A stretch of DNA of 36,059 nt from a virus (taxonomy: Duplodnaviria; Caudoviricetes): the IMG/VR virus record IMGVR_UViG_3300028128_000005, positions 1-36,059 of that record. One strand, written 5' to 3'. Both the position numbers and the translations under genes were made by a program. Of the stretch, positions 144 through 19,199 are shown piece by piece (the first letter of the stretch is position 1; each line of letters begins with the position of its first letter). A model generated the notes under the pieces. That model was not told the DNA's origin, searched no databases, and worked only from the letters and a program-made list of their open reading frames with translations.

Positions 144-159
144 GGAACCCTTCTATAAT
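144..159 (+). promoter_or_regulatory. Early promoter GGAAC-N5-TATAAT, copy 1
   Basis: GGAAC CCTTC TATAAT, then 6 nt, then ATG 166. Confidence 0.8.
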
Positions 160-165
160 AAGAAC

Positions 166-375
166 ATGCGAAACCCACACACAATCAGAAGTATCAAAGA
201 TCTAACTGAAGAGGAACGTTCCGTTCACTTACACTACACCGTAGAGTTTCTAGAGGAAAATATTAAGGAACTATATGAAGTGCTATCGGATGATATTAGT
301 TCCGACCGAACAATTCACCGTCTGGCGTTCCTTACTGATATGAATGACCGTCTAGAGACCATGCTCGATAAATAG
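166..375 (+). CDS. Hypothetical early protein, 69 aa
   Basis: ORF tiled exactly between two motif promoters. Confidence 0.75.
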   Translation: MRNPHTIRSIKDLTEEERSVHLHYTVEFLEENIKELYEVLSDDISSDRTIHRLAFLTDMNDRLETMLDK

Positions 376-390
376 GAACCCTGATATAAT
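375..390 (+). promoter_or_regulatory. Early promoter GGAAC-N5-TATAAT, copy 2
   Basis: GGAAC CCTGA TATAAT, 6 nt, ATG 397; first G is the last base of the upstream TAG. Confidence 0.8.
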
Positions 391-396
391 AGTAGT

Positions 397-591
397 ATGA
401 CAGACACAACAAACACAACAGATGTATACGTAGCCACGACAGTCCGATTCAGCCCTCAAGGAGAGAAGCTCGAGGAGGTTCGCGACTTTGCAAACGATTG
501 GGACGGCTTCAAAGAAGCAAGCAAGTTCGTCGCAGGAGCAGACGAATACGCTATTTGGTATCAAGATAAGATAATCGATTTCTCGAAATAG
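397..591 (+). CDS. Hypothetical early protein, 64 aa
   Basis: ORF tiled between motif promoters. Confidence 0.75.
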   Translation: MTDTTNTTDVYVATTVRFSPQGEKLEEVRDFANDWDGFKEASKFVAGADEYAIWYQDKIIDFSK

Positions 592-606
592 GAACCACGA
601 TATAAT
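591..606 (+). promoter_or_regulatory. Early promoter GGAAC-N5-TATAAT, copy 3
   Basis: GGAAC CACGA TATAAT, 6 nt, ATG 613. Confidence 0.8.
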
Positions 607-612
607 ATTACT

Positions 613-831
613 ATGAAACAACACGACAACACATATAACCGAATCAATTCTCTGGTACATCTCAAACTGCAGGACGATGTATTGAATGCATTTGCAGCAA
701 TGATGAAAGATCTCTTAGACGAGGAGCCATTTGAGCCCGAAGATATAGTTAAGTACATGGCTATTCGAATGCAGGAAGCAGCCGACAAATGGATCAACCC
801 AGAGCTTCCTTCGCAACGCCACGACTGGTAA
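613..831 (+). CDS. Hypothetical early protein, 72 aa
   Basis: ORF tiled between motif promoters. Confidence 0.75.
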   Translation: MKQHDNTYNRINSLVHLKLQDDVLNAFAAMMKDLLDEEPFEPEDIVKYMAIRMQEAADKWINPELPSQRHDW

Positions 832-834
832 GTA

Positions 835-850
835 GGAACTCTGATATAAT
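835..850 (+). promoter_or_regulatory. Early promoter GGAAC-N5-TATAAT, copy 4
   Basis: GGAAC TCTGA TATAAT, 6 nt, ATG 857. Confidence 0.8.
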
Positions 851-856
851 ATTGGT

Positions 857-1081
857 ATGACAAATACAACAGAGCAGACAATCGAACAGAATCAATACGG
901 TACCTTCAGCGTTTACGAATTCGGCGAATGGCCTCAAGGGTCAGTGCTTGAAGGCCAGACCATGAAACGCTTCTTAGGCATGTACGAGACAGCTGAGCAA
1001 GCGAAGAGCGCTCACCCTGAAGCAGAAGAGGGGTACAGAGATGCACATAACCACTTCGATCACTTAAGTGACGAGTATTAG
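857..1081 (+). CDS. Hypothetical early protein, 74 aa
   Basis: ORF tiled between motif promoters. Confidence 0.75.
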   Translation: MTNTTEQTIEQNQYGTFSVYEFGEWPQGSVLEGQTMKRFLGMYETAEQAKSAHPEAEEGYRDAHNHFDHLSDEY

Positions 1082-1096
1082 GAACTTAGATATAAT
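1081..1096 (+). promoter_or_regulatory. Early promoter GGAAC-N5-TATAAT, copy 5
   Basis: GGAAC TTAGA TATAAT, then an A/C-rich leader without SD to ATG 1134. Confidence 0.8.
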
Positions 1097-1133
1097 AATA
1101 GAGTAAACAATAACCAATAACCAAACACAACAT

Positions 1134-1340
1134 ATGCAAAACCCAATCACACCAGTAGGCCTCTTCCATACACCAGAGAATATCAAAGAGCTTCAAGACA
1201 TCCTCGCAAGCTATACAGCACCAGGTGAGAGTATCGTAGCTCAGACAGCAGCCTTTATGGCATGGAATCTAGCGAGTAAGATCGTTGAAGAAGCATTAGC
1301 AGATAAGAATGCAAATCCTCTAGCTGGAACAGTGATATAA
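1134..1340 (+). CDS. Hypothetical early protein, 68 aa
   Basis: ORF downstream of motif promoter. Confidence 0.75.
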   Translation: MQNPITPVGLFHTPENIKELQDILASYTAPGESIVAQTAAFMAWNLASKIVEEALADKNANPLAGTVI

Positions 1341-1341
1341 T
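1326..1341 (+). promoter_or_regulatory. Early promoter GGAAC-N5-TATAAT, copy 6
   Basis: GGAAC AGTGA TATAAT, then an A/C-rich leader to ATG 1393. Confidence 0.8.
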
Positions 1342-1799: not shown

Positions 1800-2057
1800 A
1801 TGAAAACAGATCGAGATTTAATTTTCGAAGCATATATGGCTAACAGTAAAACATCTACTTCACAATCTCAAAAGAGTTCGAGTGTGAAAGATATCATACC
1901 ACTAAGTAAACAATACATGGCCGCTCATAACAATTACGAAGAAGCGCTCGCAGAGGGTGATAATAGTGCAGCATATCATTACGAGCGTGAAATGAACCGC
2001 TTGAGTAGAGAGATCGAAGATTGGGAATATGAGCATCCTGAAGAGGTTGAATGGTAA
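1800..2057 (+). CDS. Hypothetical acidic late protein, possible internal head protein
   Basis: Late promoter; N-terminus MKTDRDLIFE. Confidence 0.7.
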   Translation: MKTDRDLIFEAYMANSKTSTSQSQKSSSVKDIIPLSKQYMAAHNNYEEALAEGDNSAAYHYEREMNRLSREIEDWEYEHPEEVEW

Positions 2058-2080
2058 TCACTTTAATTGTTGTGTTGTAT

Positions 2081-2113
2081 GAGGTCTAGTTCGCAAGAGC
2101 TAGGCCTCTTTTT
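2081..2113 (+). terminator. Rho-independent terminator
   Basis: GAGGTCTAGTTC-GCAA-GAGCTAGGCCTC followed by TTTTT. Confidence 0.85.
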
Positions 2114-2300
2114 ACCTCTCCAGTAAGGGGTACTCTGAGAGGTACACCCTTGCTAGCAGAGAGCCCCCGCTCAGAGCGGTAACCGTGGGAGAATTCTATA
2201 TATAGAGCGGGGTATCCGAACCGGTGCTCACCCATGCCAATACAAAATTTTTTGATCGCGTCTCCCTTCTCTATATATACCCCGGCGACTATCTAAATCT

Positions 2301-2346
2301 CCGAGCCTTTCCGAACTAGTTCCGAATATACCGAGCCTTTCCGAAC
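2301..2346. repeat. 16-nt direct repeat CCGAGCCTTTCCGAAC
   Basis: Copies at 2301-2316 and 2331-2346. Confidence 0.85.
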
Positions 2347-2415
2347 CCCACCTTGCAGAGGTAGCAGACGTAGTATACATAGCAATACCCTGCATCTCCC
2401 AATGCTCTACCGTTC

Positions 2416-2638
2416 GGAACGTTCCATATAACACCCTCTATGGGGAAGCTTGGAACGTACCGAACCATAGGAACTTCTAATATTTGGAACATATAGAGTT
2501 AAGAATGTTCCTAGTTCCGTATTAATAGTGTTCCGAAAAGGAGGTGTTCCGTATATATGAGAGCTGCGCTTTGAGCGGGAACTCTGCGCGTTGCGCTTTG
2601 TGGGGGGAACTTAATAAAAGATGGAACTATAGTGTTCC
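2416..2638. repeat. Dense GGAAC/GTTCC array with dyad symmetry
   Basis: GGAAC at 2416, 2452, 2470, 2486, 2578, 2606, 2623; GTTCC at 2421, 2507, 2514, 2530, 2546, 2634. Confidence 0.8.
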
Positions 2639-2654
2639 GATATTAAATAGATAT

Positions 2655-2864
2655 ATGGACGAATTAAGTGCAACTAAATACGCAGCTAAATATTATACTG
2701 GAGTATTACAGGATTTAAATAAGATTGTTTGTAAAGCAGCAATTGACAGGAACATTGACCTATCTGTAGAGCAATTGGAACTAATAAAGGAAATATCTCA
2801 TAACGCAATTAAGCATGCTCGAGAGCGCGCTAACAGTGCAGGTGACTTACACGGCCGGTACTAG
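2655..2864 (+). CDS. Hypothetical protein, 69 aa (start moved from 2544)
   Basis: ATTAAATA (2642-2649), 5 nt, ATG 2655 MDELSATKY. Confidence 0.65.
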   Translation: MDELSATKYAAKYYTGVLQDLNKIVCKAAIDRNIDLSVEQLELIKEISHNAIKHARERANSAGDLHGRY

Positions 2865-2885
2865 GTCAGGAACACCTCTATATTA

Positions 2886-2901
2886 GGAACAGTGATATAA
2901 T
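2886..2901 (+). promoter_or_regulatory. Early promoter GGAAC-N5-TATAAT, copy 7
   Basis: 28 nt identical to 1326-1353; tandem degenerate copy GGAAC ACCTC TATATT at 2869-2884. Confidence 0.8.
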
Positions 2902-2912
2902 ATAGAGGTAAG

Positions 2913-3356
2913 ATGATCGTTATAAAGCTAAAATGTGATAAGAAGATACGGGAACGTTTCAAGTACTACGGTATTGATAAGCGTAAGCTTGAGAACTTTC
3001 TTATGTTCCATACTAACAATTTAGTTAAGACGAGGAAGTGGTGGGTGCATGAGATTAAAGTAAAGGGTATAGCTGGTGCTGGCTCTCAGTACTTTTGGAA
3101 CGAAGATGAGATAGAGATAGCGTTACAGTGTAGTGAGTGTTCCTCTAAGAAGCAAAGACGTATATACTTCCTTCAGAGTCTGGTGCACGAGTATAGGCAT
3201 TGGATCCAGGCTCAGTTACAGCGAGTGGCTGAGAAAAAGATTACCTACACAGAGAAGGATGTAGAGGAACGTAATGCTAACTATCTTAAGAACGTATATG
3301 AGTTAGAGTGTACGGAGTGGGAAAAGATTGTTGAGAGATTTAACGAATTTATATAA
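2913..3356 (+). CDS. Putative zinc metallopeptidase-like protein (HExxH)
   Basis: LVHEYRH motif with downstream YELE. Confidence 0.55.
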   Translation: MIVIKLKCDKKIRERFKYYGIDKRKLENFLMFHTNNLVKTRKWWVHEIKVKGIAGAGSQYFWNEDEIEIALQCSECSSKKQRRIYFLQSLVHEYRHWIQAQLQRVAEKKITYTEKDVEERNANYLKNVYELECTEWEKIVERFNEFI

Positions 3357-3364
3357 ATAATATT

Positions 3365-3643
3365 ATGAAGTCATTCAAAGAATTGTATAAAAGCCTTATC
3401 AGCGAGTATAATGAAGATTATAAAGACTCGCATGCAGATGCAGAACAAGAGTATAAAGGTTATACAATCTCTTATACGACAGAATATGAAGAAGATTATT
3501 CGCATAATTTTTATACCATCTTTACTCCTGATGGTAAGAAGATAAGTAGTGTAGACTTACAAAATATTGGTGTGAAGCTTCCTAGAGATGATAATGAAGC
3601 ATTTGATGTGATTGCAGGTTTAATAGATACGGGGAAGATTTAA
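3365..3643 (+). CDS. Hypothetical late protein with a T4 internal-protein-like N-terminus
   Basis: TATAAATA 3352-3359, 5 nt, ATG; MKSFKELYKSLISE. Confidence 0.7.
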   Translation: MKSFKELYKSLISEYNEDYKDSHADAEQEYKGYTISYTTEYEEDYSHNFYTIFTPDGKKISSVDLQNIGVKLPRDDNEAFDVIAGLIDTGKI

Positions 3644-13194: not shown

Positions 13195-14124
13195 TTACTG
13201 CTTACTCGTTTTGATATGTATCATCCCAGGATCAACAAGCGGCTTAGCAAACCGTTCAATTAGATCATTGCTTGATGCTCTAACTGGGTTAATATCAATA
13301 CCACCTCGTCGCGCATATAGACACATTACTAAGAGTTCGCTCGGTTCGAACGCATCTTGTAAACGTTTATATATACACTCGCAAATTTCTTCATGGAAGT
13401 GACATTCATCTCTAAATGATATAACATATTTCAATATACTATGAGCATCGATAGCATTCTTTGATTTAATATGAATGAATACATCCCCCCAATCTGGCTG
13501 AGAAGTAACACGACAGTTACTCTTAAGTAAACCAGAATAGAACTTCTGCTCTACTTCATTCTCTCGACTAACTGCTTCTAATAAACTTGGATCTTCAGTA
13601 TACTGAGTATATTCAAGCTCGCTAGAATCCTCTAAGAGATCAACATTTAAATAATGCTCAATATCCCATTCATTATCTGGACTATTAAACTTTTTATTTA
13701 CTCGTACACCACTATGAAATGATACCTTAACATCAGTCTGAAGTAATTCACTTAAGTCTCTAGCAGAAATTTCTTCGAAGTTCTTAACTGCTTTATCATT
13801 ACCATCTCCCATTTTAGTCATATTAAAAGAGTTAAAGTATAGTTTAATACTCTTACTCTCGACAATATACTTACTACTGCATGGGTATACACATTTAACT
13901 ACACCTGTTACAGGTCGACCATTCTTTAAAAGGAATGAGCATTCATATGCATTCCACGTATCTGAACCAACGAATGGTAAAGCATCATCAAAAATATTGA
14001 GATACTCTCTGTTATTACTTCGGGGTTCTCTTACTAGTAGACCTTTATCATACGTACTCTTATATTGAGACGATTGACCAAGATGCTTACTAATATTGCT
14101 GTTATCTAATTTACTGTTTGCCAT
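13195..14124 (-). CDS. queF: NADPH-dependent 7-cyano-7-deazaguanine (preQ0) reductase, bimodular YqcD type
   Basis: DTWNAYECSFL, QueF motif VESKSIKLYFNSF, catalytic KSNCRVTSQPDWG, FHEEICE, YARRGGIDINP. Confidence 0.93.
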   Translation of the reverse strand: MANSKLDNSNISKHLGQSSQYKSTYDKGLLVREPRSNNREYLNIFDDALPFVGSDTWNAYECSFLLKNGRPVTGVVKCVYPCSSKYIVESKSIKLYFNSFNMTKMGDGNDKAVKNFEEISARDLSELLQTDVKVSFHSGVRVNKKFNSPDNEWDIEHYLNVDLLEDSSELEYTQYTEDPSLLEAVSRENEVEQKFYSGLLKSNCRVTSQPDWGDVFIHIKSKNAIDAHSILKYVISFRDECHFHEEICECIYKRLQDAFEPSELLVMCLYARRGGIDINPVRASSNDLIERFAKPLVDPGMIHIKTSKQ

Positions 14125-14662
14125 AATTATCAAATGTATTATATATTGTTTCTAACCGTTGTTCAACTGTACCACTTAACCTTACTACATCTATTTTAAA
14201 ATGATTGATTGCCTCTTCAAAAAGGTTAATGATAGTATCACGAAACTCTTTATTCGCACTTCTCTCACCGTCATCTACTAAGGGTATGTCAGGTTCTGTA
14301 TAAAGTATAACATCTACATTACCAATCAATTTACTAAAGAGGTATTCACTATAATTATATATCTCAATAGGTATTTTTTTCGTCTGATACTGATACATCG
14401 TATATATCAACCCGTCTAGAATACATCTATCTAATACAACATTTTTACCTTTAAAATCGAGATAATTATATAGATGACTATTTACAGTTAATAATTGAGT
14501 ATATTCATCTCCACTCTCATTAATATCTAACTTATATTTATCTTTTAAACTCCTTGTAATTTCTGGTACGAAATTAAACTTACGAAAGCGTTCATCCAAT
14601 TGAATTGCTTTCAGTAAAGTAGATTTACCTGTACTTTGAGCTCCTGTAAAACTAATAACCAT
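14111..14662 (-). CDS. P-loop kinase/ATPase (AAA_28, NadR or dNMP-kinase-like)
   Basis: GAQSTGKST, DRCILD, DDGER. Confidence 0.8.
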   Translation of the reverse strand: MVISFTGAQSTGKSTLLKAIQLDERFRKFNFVPEITRSLKDKYKLDINESGDEYTQLLTVNSHLYNYLDFKGKNVVLDRCILDGLIYTMYQYQTKKIPIEIYNYSEYLFSKLIGNVDVILYTEPDIPLVDDGERSANKEFRDTIINLFEEAINHFKIDVVRLSGTVEQRLETIYNTFDNYGKQ

Positions 14663-15443
14663 GACCTATAATACTTTTAAATTGATTAACATTGTAATTT
14701 ATATTCTCTTGCTCCGTATCAGTAACTTCATGATCAATTAGATCAGCTAACATAATCGATGGCTTTTCGTTTAATCCTAGATCACCATTATATCTAAGTT
14801 CCTTAATACCTGCAACTACTGGATTAGATGTATCTACAGATCTAATAGATCTATCACCAATATAGCTTTTGAATTCCTTAGCCAAAGAACAACCTAAAAG
14901 GTGATGAGGTTTATTATTATTCCAAATACCATCCGATTTTAATTGGTTAATTAATCTTCGACGACCATCACACCATCTTTCTAATTTAGTCTTACCGATA
15001 CCAGTTACAATATAATAACTAAAATCGAAACTAATCGCGATGTAATCAGCATAGTCTGACATATACCTATAACAATCGACAATCTCATCATATGTCTTAC
15101 CTTGAACTGCTCCGATTTTTAAACCTGGTAAGTCTGGATATTTACCTGTAAATTCAGAAAAACTCTTAATTGTAGCATATCCATCCTCTAATACATCGGG
15201 TACAATATAAAAACTAGGTTTTAATTCTTCAGCATATTTAGCAAACTTTTCTGAATCAAAAGACTCACCGAGCTCGAAGATACTATTATCTAGCAATACT
15301 TGACGACCTAATTTAATAGAATCTTTAAAAAACTGATAATATTCTGGGTGAGTCTCAAATAGATGAACTAAAGCATAATCGTAATCATTATACGATCGTG
15401 ATTGTTCTAGAAATGATATAGGACTTTCATGTGATACATACAT
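14652..15443 (-). CDS. TGT-fold transglycosylase, DpdA-like (7-deazaguanine exchange)
   Basis: LLDNSIFE, VPDVL, GAVQG, HHLLG, SVDTSNP in TGT/DpdA order; co-operonic with queF. Confidence 0.7.
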   Translation of the reverse strand: MYVSHESPISFLEQSRSYNDYDYALVHLFETHPEYYQFFKDSIKLGRQVLLDNSIFELGESFDSEKFAKYAEELKPSFYIVPDVLEDGYATIKSFSEFTGKYPDLPGLKIGAVQGKTYDEIVDCYRYMSDYADYIAISFDFSYYIVTGIGKTKLERWCDGRRRLINQLKSDGIWNNNKPHHLLGCSLAKEFKSYIGDRSIRSVDTSNPVVAGIKELRYNGDLGLNEKPSIMLADLIDHEVTDTEQENINYNVNQFKSIIGHGY

Positions 15444-18905: not shown

Positions 18906-19199
18906 ATGGACTCTAGAGAAAAAACTCGTCTCGATAGAATTGAAGAAAAGATTGATAAGATGGCAGAAGCTGTTGTATCTTTAGCCCGTGCTGAAGAAAA
19001 AATTCTTAGTCTCAACACTACAACACACACTATATTAAAGCGGCTTGTTGAATATGAGACACGTATGAGAGAAGTTGAACAGAAAGCAGCTGAATCAGAA
19101 TCAAAACTTAAATCAATTACAGCATTTATATGGACTATAGTTACAGCTGTAACAGCGGCTATAGTCAGTGGGATTGCTTGGTTTAATGGTAGTAATTAG
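18906..19199 (+). CDS. Coiled-coil protein with a C-terminal TM helix (XhlA/holin-like)
   Basis: RLDRIEEKIDKM coiled coil; TM AFIWTIVTAVTAAIVSGIAWF. Confidence 0.6.
   Translation: MDSREKTRLDRIEEKIDKMAEAVVSLARAEEKILSLNTTTHTILKRLVEYETRMREVEQKAAESESKLKSITAFIWTIVTAVTAAIVSGIAWFNGSN

Follow-up and report, generated by a model that had tools for sequence, protein, structure and literature searches.

The 13 GGAAC/GTTCC boxes between positions 2416 and 2638 form the peak of a cloud of GGAAC sites that has no fixed order and lies beside a conserved non-coding core, and we tentatively read the core as the packaging-start (pac) site; the probability that we attach to this reading is roughly 0.45. As a whole, the locus works most like a pac site accompanied by a cluster of short sites for an enzyme or a protein, and it is presented as a candidate set apart from the pac sites of the P1/T4 kind as well as from iteron origins. 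The coordinates of the features discussed are collected in Table 1.

Table 1. Features of the window relevant to the GGAAC boxes and the conserved core.
Feature	Position	Strand	Basis or remark
Six GGAAC-N5-TATAAT early promoters	144..1341 (144, 375, 591, 835, 1081, 1326)	+	ahead of small ORFs
Intrinsic terminator of the early small-gene cluster	2081..2113	+	12-pair stem and T run
Conserved non-coding core, candidate packaging start	2167..2280		profile matches and 26-copy alignment
Core part: CCGCTCAGAG	2167-2176		alignment
Core part: left TATA box	2194-2205		alignment
Core part: CCCATG	2231-2236		alignment
Core part: A/T tract	2244-2253		alignment
Core part: CGCG	2255-2261		alignment
Core part: right TATA box	2269-2280		alignment
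14th GGAAC box, beyond the range described previously	2319..2323	-	box count
Semi-conserved short inverted motif CCTTGCAGAGG	2351..2361		by eye; found in many relatives, at 65-125 nt to the right of CATG
Densest part of the GGAAC cloud	2416..2638		13 exact boxes (forward 7, reverse 6), without a -10 box after any of them
Second GC-rich semi-conserved element GCGCTTTG..GCGCG, right island edge	2563..2602		by eye in L005, L007, L013, L020, L033, L079
69-aa conserved ORF, right border of the island	2655..2864	+	conserved in L001-L012; 2 further boxes inside
Seventh GGAAC-N5-TATAAT promoter	2886..2901	+	ahead of the 147-aa ORF at 2913
Bimodular QueF (preQ0 reductase)	13195..14133	-	79% identical to a G001 protein matching Pfam QueF_N and QueF
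DpdA-like guanine transglycosylase (TGT fold), candidate writer at GGAAC	14652..15443	-	atlas, model and PDB matches

The window, that is the whole 36-kb stretch of DNA analysed, belongs to an uncultured marine T4-like phage, its source runs being seawater metagenomes. The genes gp15, gp20, gp13, gp4, gp21, gp22 and gp23 follow one another in that order at 4.5-13 kb, and the best cultured match of the capsid is 34% identical. The phage family is large and uncultured, its capsid patterns matching about 3900 stored stretches, and a BLAST search of positions 2050-3360 against 50,697 phage records returned no match. Small ORFs, each behind a GGAAC-N5-TATAAT promoter, fill bases 1-2060, and the non-coding island extends to 2654, after which the 69-aa ORF begins. 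The terminator of the early cluster is also found upstream of the core in the relatives inspected, and RNA contigs from two studies end at 2072 and 2163, a weak hint of termination. A T4 late-type TAAATA box (2644-2649) precedes the 69-aa ORF, for which no Pfam or atlas family was found. Further downstream, positions 2913-3356 (+) encode a 147-aa protein with an HEXXH-like stretch (LVHEYRHW) and its own GGAAC promoter; this protein is retained between the island and gp15 across the family and gave no family match. Regarding the host, the capsid relatives found in genome bins came from unrelated taxa (Bacteriovoracaceae, Terrimicrobiaceae, Proteobacteria and an archaeon) and were rejected as a guide, while a Verrucomicrobia T4-like virus (PMC4611503) provides a lead.

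The boxes start at 2416, 2421, 2452, 2470, 2486, 2507, 2514, 2530, 2546, 2578, 2606, 2623 and 2634, in agreement with the preliminary description, which counted and placed 13 of them in 223 nt. In 3000 dinucleotide shuffles the mean was 0.47 boxes and the maximum 4, none of the shuffles reaching 13. The palindrome GGAACGTTCC was likewise present at both positions reported, 213 and 2416. The dyad symmetry proposed for the array survived in part: three mirrored pairs do exist (centres 2501-2502), but they comprise six boxes selected out of 13, and at least three such pairs arose in 9% of 1500 random placements of 13 boxes with the same orientations, so that the symmetry is not significant (P about 0.09). 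Relatives with at least eight boxes (n = 10) contain just one or two mirrored pairs each (P 0.115-1.0). The symmetry is not kept in relatives, and neither it nor the 16-18 nt periodicity is supported as functional design. Box 2507, which forms a 7-bp inverted repeat with box 2486, had been omitted. Inverted half sites at fixed spacing, as in a palindromic operator array, are not kept in relatives either; the zero-gap palindrome alone recurs (spacing 5 in nine adjacent pairs, which are not independent). That the spacers are unpaired holds by and large for the dyad at 2452-2550, whereas the island as a whole folds better than shuffled sequence (z -3.6 on either strand). The k-mer enrichment check suggested at that stage was run and showed that the boxes exceed shuffled sequence without being confined to the array, the observed and expected numbers being 12 vs 3.4 in 1-2060, 14 vs 1.1 in 2061-2654, 9 vs 1.0 in 2655-3400 and 19 vs 31.8 in 3401-36059. 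Among the three nearest relatives, 1 of 65 box positions and 14 of 158 spacer positions are variable, a difference that is not significant (P 0.07).

The pentamer of the array is indeed, as had been proposed, the pentamer of the early promoters, and of 179 GGAAC..TATAAT pairs, 147 are separated by 5 bases. Among 158 distinct promoters no -35 signal could be seen, and the ATG lies 6 bases after the -10 box (leaderless). With this ATG counted as +1, a predicted start, GGAAC occupies positions -22 to -18, which is where the Z-element is contacted by the beta-prime zipper in promoters working without a -35 box (PMC3173786). The GGAAC promoters share with -10/Z promoters the position of the element, a strong -10 box and the absence of a -35 box. 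However, the Z-element (AACCT/AACAT) has a loose consensus and less than 2-fold effects (PMC3173786), whereas GGAAC is invariant, stands in another register, its AAC being shifted by two bases relative to the loose AAC(C/A)T-like sequence, and is selected away from -10 boxes too. Selection outside the promoter context argues against RNA polymerase alone as the reader of the word. The PeSL cassettes of T4-like phages are likewise repeated promoter units before small ORFans in a hypervariable region, but they consist of a -35 box, a -10 box and a stem-loop, and a free cloud of boxes is not part of the PeSL description in the portion of the source available (PMC2839356).

The early promoters of the complete genome G265 read TTGA-17-TATAAT and contain no GGAAC. 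The ordinary-promoter early genes of this genome (217-229 kb; L430, L431) are also leaderless, with the ATG 6 bases after the -10 box, and leaderless starts would therefore predate the GGAAC box. Clusters of TGGGA/GGGAT in G265 were rejected, as they are coding repeats. Seven GGAAC promoters were found in G287. As for a host origin of the word, GGAAC-N5 was rejected as a host consensus since no excess was seen in the phylum of G007, the single phylum examined, where 95 of 251 genomes have any GGAAC-N5 match; within the phylum of a candidate host (101 genomes), the 5-base gap was not in excess, with 331 cases against 406 at gap 4 and 391 at gap 6. Searches of the open full-text literature showed no paper on GGAAC-N5-TATAAT phage promoters, on the conserved core, on the behaviour of the cloud or on a link to DpdA.

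The core is a 115-base element situated 140 bases to the left of the array, after the terminator that closes the early genes and ahead of the late ones, and it was overlooked in the preliminary description. A profile seeded on six copies recovered it at each of the 15 gp15 loci that have over 4.2 kb of upstream sequence; two of these 15 are seed or identical entries. In 26 aligned copies CATG never varies, nor do the two TATA boxes that flank it at distances of about 34 and 41 bases; the A/T tract and CGCG lie on its right. RNAalifold yielded no consensus pair over the 26 copies, and Rfam and tRNA scans returned nothing; the core is therefore read as a DNA element, and the earlier preference for a DNA site cluster over a conserved hairpin is upheld. 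One core match per genome was obtained in G001, G002 and G265, and a single conserved site per genome, as expected of a pac, is found except in the complete genome G261, which gave no significant match (best E 0.99). In G261 a GC-rich non-coding kilobase at 203-204 kb adjoins the GGAAC peak. A diverged core in the same place, after the last early gene, is present in G265 and also in G262 and G263 (gp15 identity 44% and 40%), in these last two with weak scores obtained in a targeted search only (E 7e-4 and 2e-4). Judged by sequence, the core persists down to 40% gp15 identity and in an ordinary -35-promoter phage, being kept in G265. General motif scans confined it to the T4-like family of the window, other matches being chance or look-alikes of the right arm. 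In unrelated phages (L130 and L132, around 1500), an A/T tract-CGCG-TATATA arrangement resembling the right arm stands in non-coding DNA beside G-rich runs.

Averaged over 26 loci, 4.04 boxes fall within the first 250 nt to the right of CATG, where 0.33 would be expected, and the density is down to background by about 2.5 kb; on the early side there are about 2 boxes per 250 nt throughout. The number of boxes in +40 to +540 is bimodal (8-15 in 11 loci, 1-4 in 8 and none in 7), and their positions and orientations differ between loci with no common spacing. The pentamer is exact, 148 copies being present against at most 36 for any of the 15 one-mismatch variants, and 115 cloud boxes have no informative flanks. 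In the peak bin, 61 boxes are forward and 44 reverse, with spacings of 5-30 and more. A reverse-strand SNase gene occupies the gap in many relatives, and copies of it at 88-100% protein identity hold 0-7 boxes, several of them through synonymous changes (19 rows compared; per-column counts are approximate). This pattern suggests that site density is under selection, with each site acquired individually. On this comparison of sequences, the cloud is lineage-variable and its boxes are gained singly, in either orientation and even inside coding DNA. An array that is essential in itself is hard to reconcile with the 7 of 26 relatives that are box-free in the 500 nt right of the core, or with G265, which keeps the core and has no GGAAC promoters. 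The strongest cloud was found in G261, where the box density peaks inside the early cluster; a tandem GTTCC run lies within an intergenic gap of this genome (200.2-200.4 kb; L322:250-400). Depletion of GGAAC as a lineage marker did not separate the lineages.

The island does look like a packaging or end site, one of the roles suggested for it at the outset. Three contigs end within 6 bases of CATG. Of 14 metagenome contigs found with a left-arm pattern, 12 run through the motif and two, which approach it from the early side, terminate there. L465 ends inside CCCCATG, between A and T, and L462 ends one base before CCCC; the chance of two or more such ends is roughly P 0.001-0.007 for windows of 12-30 nt. 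L002 starts at the first base after CATG. Such ends may be assembly breaks. No contig end was seen right of the core among 9 and 10 viral contigs of two further scans, mostly of loci already covered. Unitig depth left and right of the core was 7.9 vs 5.4 in X4, 10.2 vs 7-8 in X5 and 23.7 vs 7.3 in X6; the early side is thus deeper in three of four DNA runs, a measure confounded by strain mixtures in early genes, and in X1 one unitig spans the core.

In the mechanism that we propose, the terminase would bind the TATA/A-tract arms and cut at or near CCCATG. Headful packaging would probably proceed leftward, in which case the early cluster would be terminally redundant and the first to enter the cell. 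Each GGAAC may serve separately as a target of a single protein or modifying enzyme, acting at promoters, and in cloud-bearing lineages the density of sites may tune or label packaging, in the way of the GATC repeats at P1 pac. Against the pac reading stand the 12 contigs that run through the motif and the X1 unitig that spans the core; moreover, the cloud would lie on the side not packaged first if packaging runs leftward, and G261 has no significant core despite its cloud. In addition, pac sites are expected in or beside terminase genes, whereas TerL is about 120 kb from the core in G001 (about 123 kb vs 0.3 kb) and at 139 kb vs 217 kb for the core in G265. T4-like phages are usually treated as being without a fixed genome start, and the invariant CCCATG in a conserved intergenic element provides an exact coordinate for testing such a start in virome reads.

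Among known systems, P1 pac carries seven GATC repeats methylated by Dam (PMC10028697), and the likeness consists in a short enzyme-type word clustered beside a cut site, which is presumed here, and in headful packaging. In P1, however, seven ordered hexamers flank the cut on both sides inside pacA (PMC10028697), whereas the GGAAC word is not palindromic and its cloud is optional, has no order, stands between genes and is distant from terL, the cut and the modification being predicted ones. With T4 pac the core shares a T4-type terminase, headful packaging and a GC-rich signal, but T4 pac is coding and next to terL, while the core is non-coding and about 120 kb away. We have not classed the core with the P1/T4 kind because it lies outside the terminase genes and its cut is a putative one. 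A parallel in setting is offered by T4-like cyanophages such as S-PM2, in which the last of the small early genes is likewise followed by an unannotated element that is GC-rich and contains a TATA box and A tracts. In S-PM2 (NC_006820; L339:25030-25270) this early/late junction element contains CTCTATATA and A tracts, and it is 74-81% conserved in S-RIM32, S-H9-2, S-RIM44 and Syn1. However, its likeness to the core in sequence is weak (E 0.005 against the core model in a 2-kb search), with no CCCATG in the same setting and no GGAAC cloud. Puxty et al. (PMC4503421) reported that S-PM2 read depth is 2-3-fold higher downstream of the ORFan block and read this as terminal redundancy; the available text of that paper places no cut in the junction element. 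A similar unannotated element at the same junction in cultured cyanophages nevertheless means that a cultured system exists for the pac idea.

Ranked after the pac reading, and doubtful, is the possibility that the core is a replication origin of the R-loop or initiator type, with the boxes as initiator or helper sites like the repeats of T4 oriE or plasmid iterons. It speaks for an origin that the core is a conserved, GC-rich and non-coding site that occurs once and combines TATA boxes with an A/T tract, and a repeat cluster in a T4-like genome has a precedent in T4 oriE (PMC3016281). Similarly, two GGAAC promoters of G261 aim into a GC-rich non-coding stretch in the style of T4 R-loop origins. 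The iteron-like origin advanced in the preliminary description does not hold up for the length, orientation and spacing of the repeats or for GC skew: iterons are direct 12-22 bp repeats in one orientation and at even spacing, conserved at a syntenic site, whereas the boxes are 5-mers in both orientations at uneven spacing, absent from 7 of 26 loci and differing in position among the others. The GC-skew inflection check proposed with it gave no origin signal. It is on account of the contig ends, the depth, the S-PM2 likeness and the lack of a GC-skew signal that the pac reading was placed first and the origin second. The G261 segment at 203.1-204.3 kb (L322:3130-4300), in which the two GGAAC promoters are opposed to the early genes and face the GC-rich non-coding kilobase, may represent an R-loop origin; a long non-coding RNA is the other candidate.

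A further reading is a specific form of the pac explanation and compatible with it. It holds that GGAAC is the target of the DpdA-like enzyme, which would swap guanine for a preQ1-type base, and that the mark, present in the virion, helps the host RNA polymerase to open the -35-less early promoters ahead of phage protein synthesis and labels the packaging region as phage DNA. The enzyme lies in a block right after gp23 (13195-15443, -) that encodes QueF, a small kinase-like protein and the DpdA-like TGT-fold protein. The ORF at 14652-15443 scored 0.98 as a transglycosylase and 0.95 for a DpdA cluster in the atlas, its model has a pLDDT of 91, and the best PDB matches of this model are all TGTs (E 9e-9). 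Its family counts 3948 homologues at E 1e-10, and 19 of 34 homologues match weakly DUF6610, which has been linked to DpdA4 by Cui et al. (10.1101/2023.04.13.536721). The window protein itself has no Pfam match at 1e-3, and a DpdA profile found no match among PDB sequences. The QueF protein carries the PHROG label GTP cyclohydrolase, and QueC, QueD and FolE2 are also encoded in G001. A TGT fold without the tRNA-type size, standing beside Que genes in a phage, is what marks a DpdA and is found for this ORF; phage DpdA systems do combine a TGT-fold enzyme with Que pathway genes, as in the window (10.1101/2023.04.13.536721; PMC10484667). The phage DNA probably carries 7-deazaguanine, to judge from these genes, and the DpdA-like enzyme is the best, if weakly supported, candidate found for the GGAAC reader.

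The DpdA reading would explain an exact, flank-free and orientation-free word, which is the behaviour of an enzyme site, as well as a phage-specific box in promoters firing before phage proteins are made. GGAAC sites amount to 0.2-0.3% of guanines, within the range for low-rate DpdAs (10.1101/2023.04.13.536721). In a DpdA tree, one branch (91/88) splits 10 GGAAC-promoter records from 6 without, while the gp23 capsid tree rejects this grouping (p-AU 0.015); both trees omit G274, identical to G285, and records lacking either gene. Neither a DpdA match nor GGAAC promoters were found in the sequence examined of G268 (87 kb) and L151, and a comparison of G261 with G265 brought out no further gene particular to the GGAAC lineage; the search for a regulator in this comparison gave two candidates, a helicase also present in G268 and a weakly conserved 148-aa protein. 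However, the tree contrast hangs on G280, a 28-kb fragment missing its early region, five of the six records with no promoter seen are 13-20% fragments, and the branch support falls short of the 95/80 threshold. A single change is likewise required on the QueF tree (63/86), and most of the contrast is therefore accounted for by shared ancestry. In addition, G265 has a DpdA (56-58%) without a special promoter word, and the phage DpdA motifs mapped so far have 2-3 bases (GA, GGC, GGT; PMC10484667). Known DpdAs act in nuclease protection, and no 5-base motif and no role in promoters or packaging was found in the available parts of the sources (10.1101/2023.04.13.536721; PMC10484667). Since the contrast depends on one fragment and the mapped motifs are this short, we consider the DpdA reading unlikely. 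Its fuller version is less likely still: a DpdA-written GGAAC mark as an inherited signal, replacing the -35 box at entry and flagging the packaging site by its density, would be a positive code beyond a nuclease shield. If DpdA writes GGAAC, deazaguanine modification would be linked to transcription and packaging. A GGAAC promoter lies directly before or inside the dpdA-like gene in G278 (25348), G274 (25468) and G285 (46650).

The cloud could also be a mere sink or loading zone for a host or virion-borne early-promoter factor, with the core as a barrier between early and late transcription, although we regard this as improbable. It would accord with the fixed place of GGAAC in the 158 distinct promoters, with the even presence of boxes across the early region and with the peak inside the early cluster of G261. 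Against it, the core is retained in G265 without GGAAC promoters, the intrinsic terminator already closes the early cluster, no lineage-specific regulator gene emerged between G261 and G265, the 101 genomes of the candidate-host phylum have no 5-base-gap excess, and the contig ends at CATG are left unexplained.

That the cloud is a neutral by-product, left by promoter copies in decay and by short duplications where recombination is frequent, is very unlikely. Variability between lineages is high, tandem copies of the 'GGAACACCTCTATATTAGGAACAGTGATATAAT' type stand before the 2913 gene and tandem GTTCC runs occur in G261, but the cloud boxes retain no promoter flanks, one-mismatch variants are not enriched, and a nuclease gene that is still intact has gained boxes of both orientations through individual point changes. 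Least credible of all is a structured non-coding RNA with pairing boxes, for which the island fold (z-score -3.6) and RNA-library contigs of relatives covering 2443-2663 and 2458-2638 could be cited, since the z-score is equal on both strands, conserved pairing with covariation amounts to zero consensus pairs over 26 copies with no Rfam match, RNA runs X15 and X16 do not cover 2201-3400 (in X17 and X18 it is covered by relatives), and RNA libraries may contain DNA.

Elsewhere in the window, a 97-aa ORF (18906-19199, +) has weak PHROG matches, one of them labelled hemolysin (E 2.5e-5). In G001, a block at 56.8-61.8 kb (L092:16804 to L093:1813) encodes a CHASE2 adenylate cyclase, FecR, CsgG and CsgF, as in marine SAR11 myophages. 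The same genome also carries genes for spermidine synthase, AdoMet decarboxylases, SOD and PhoH.
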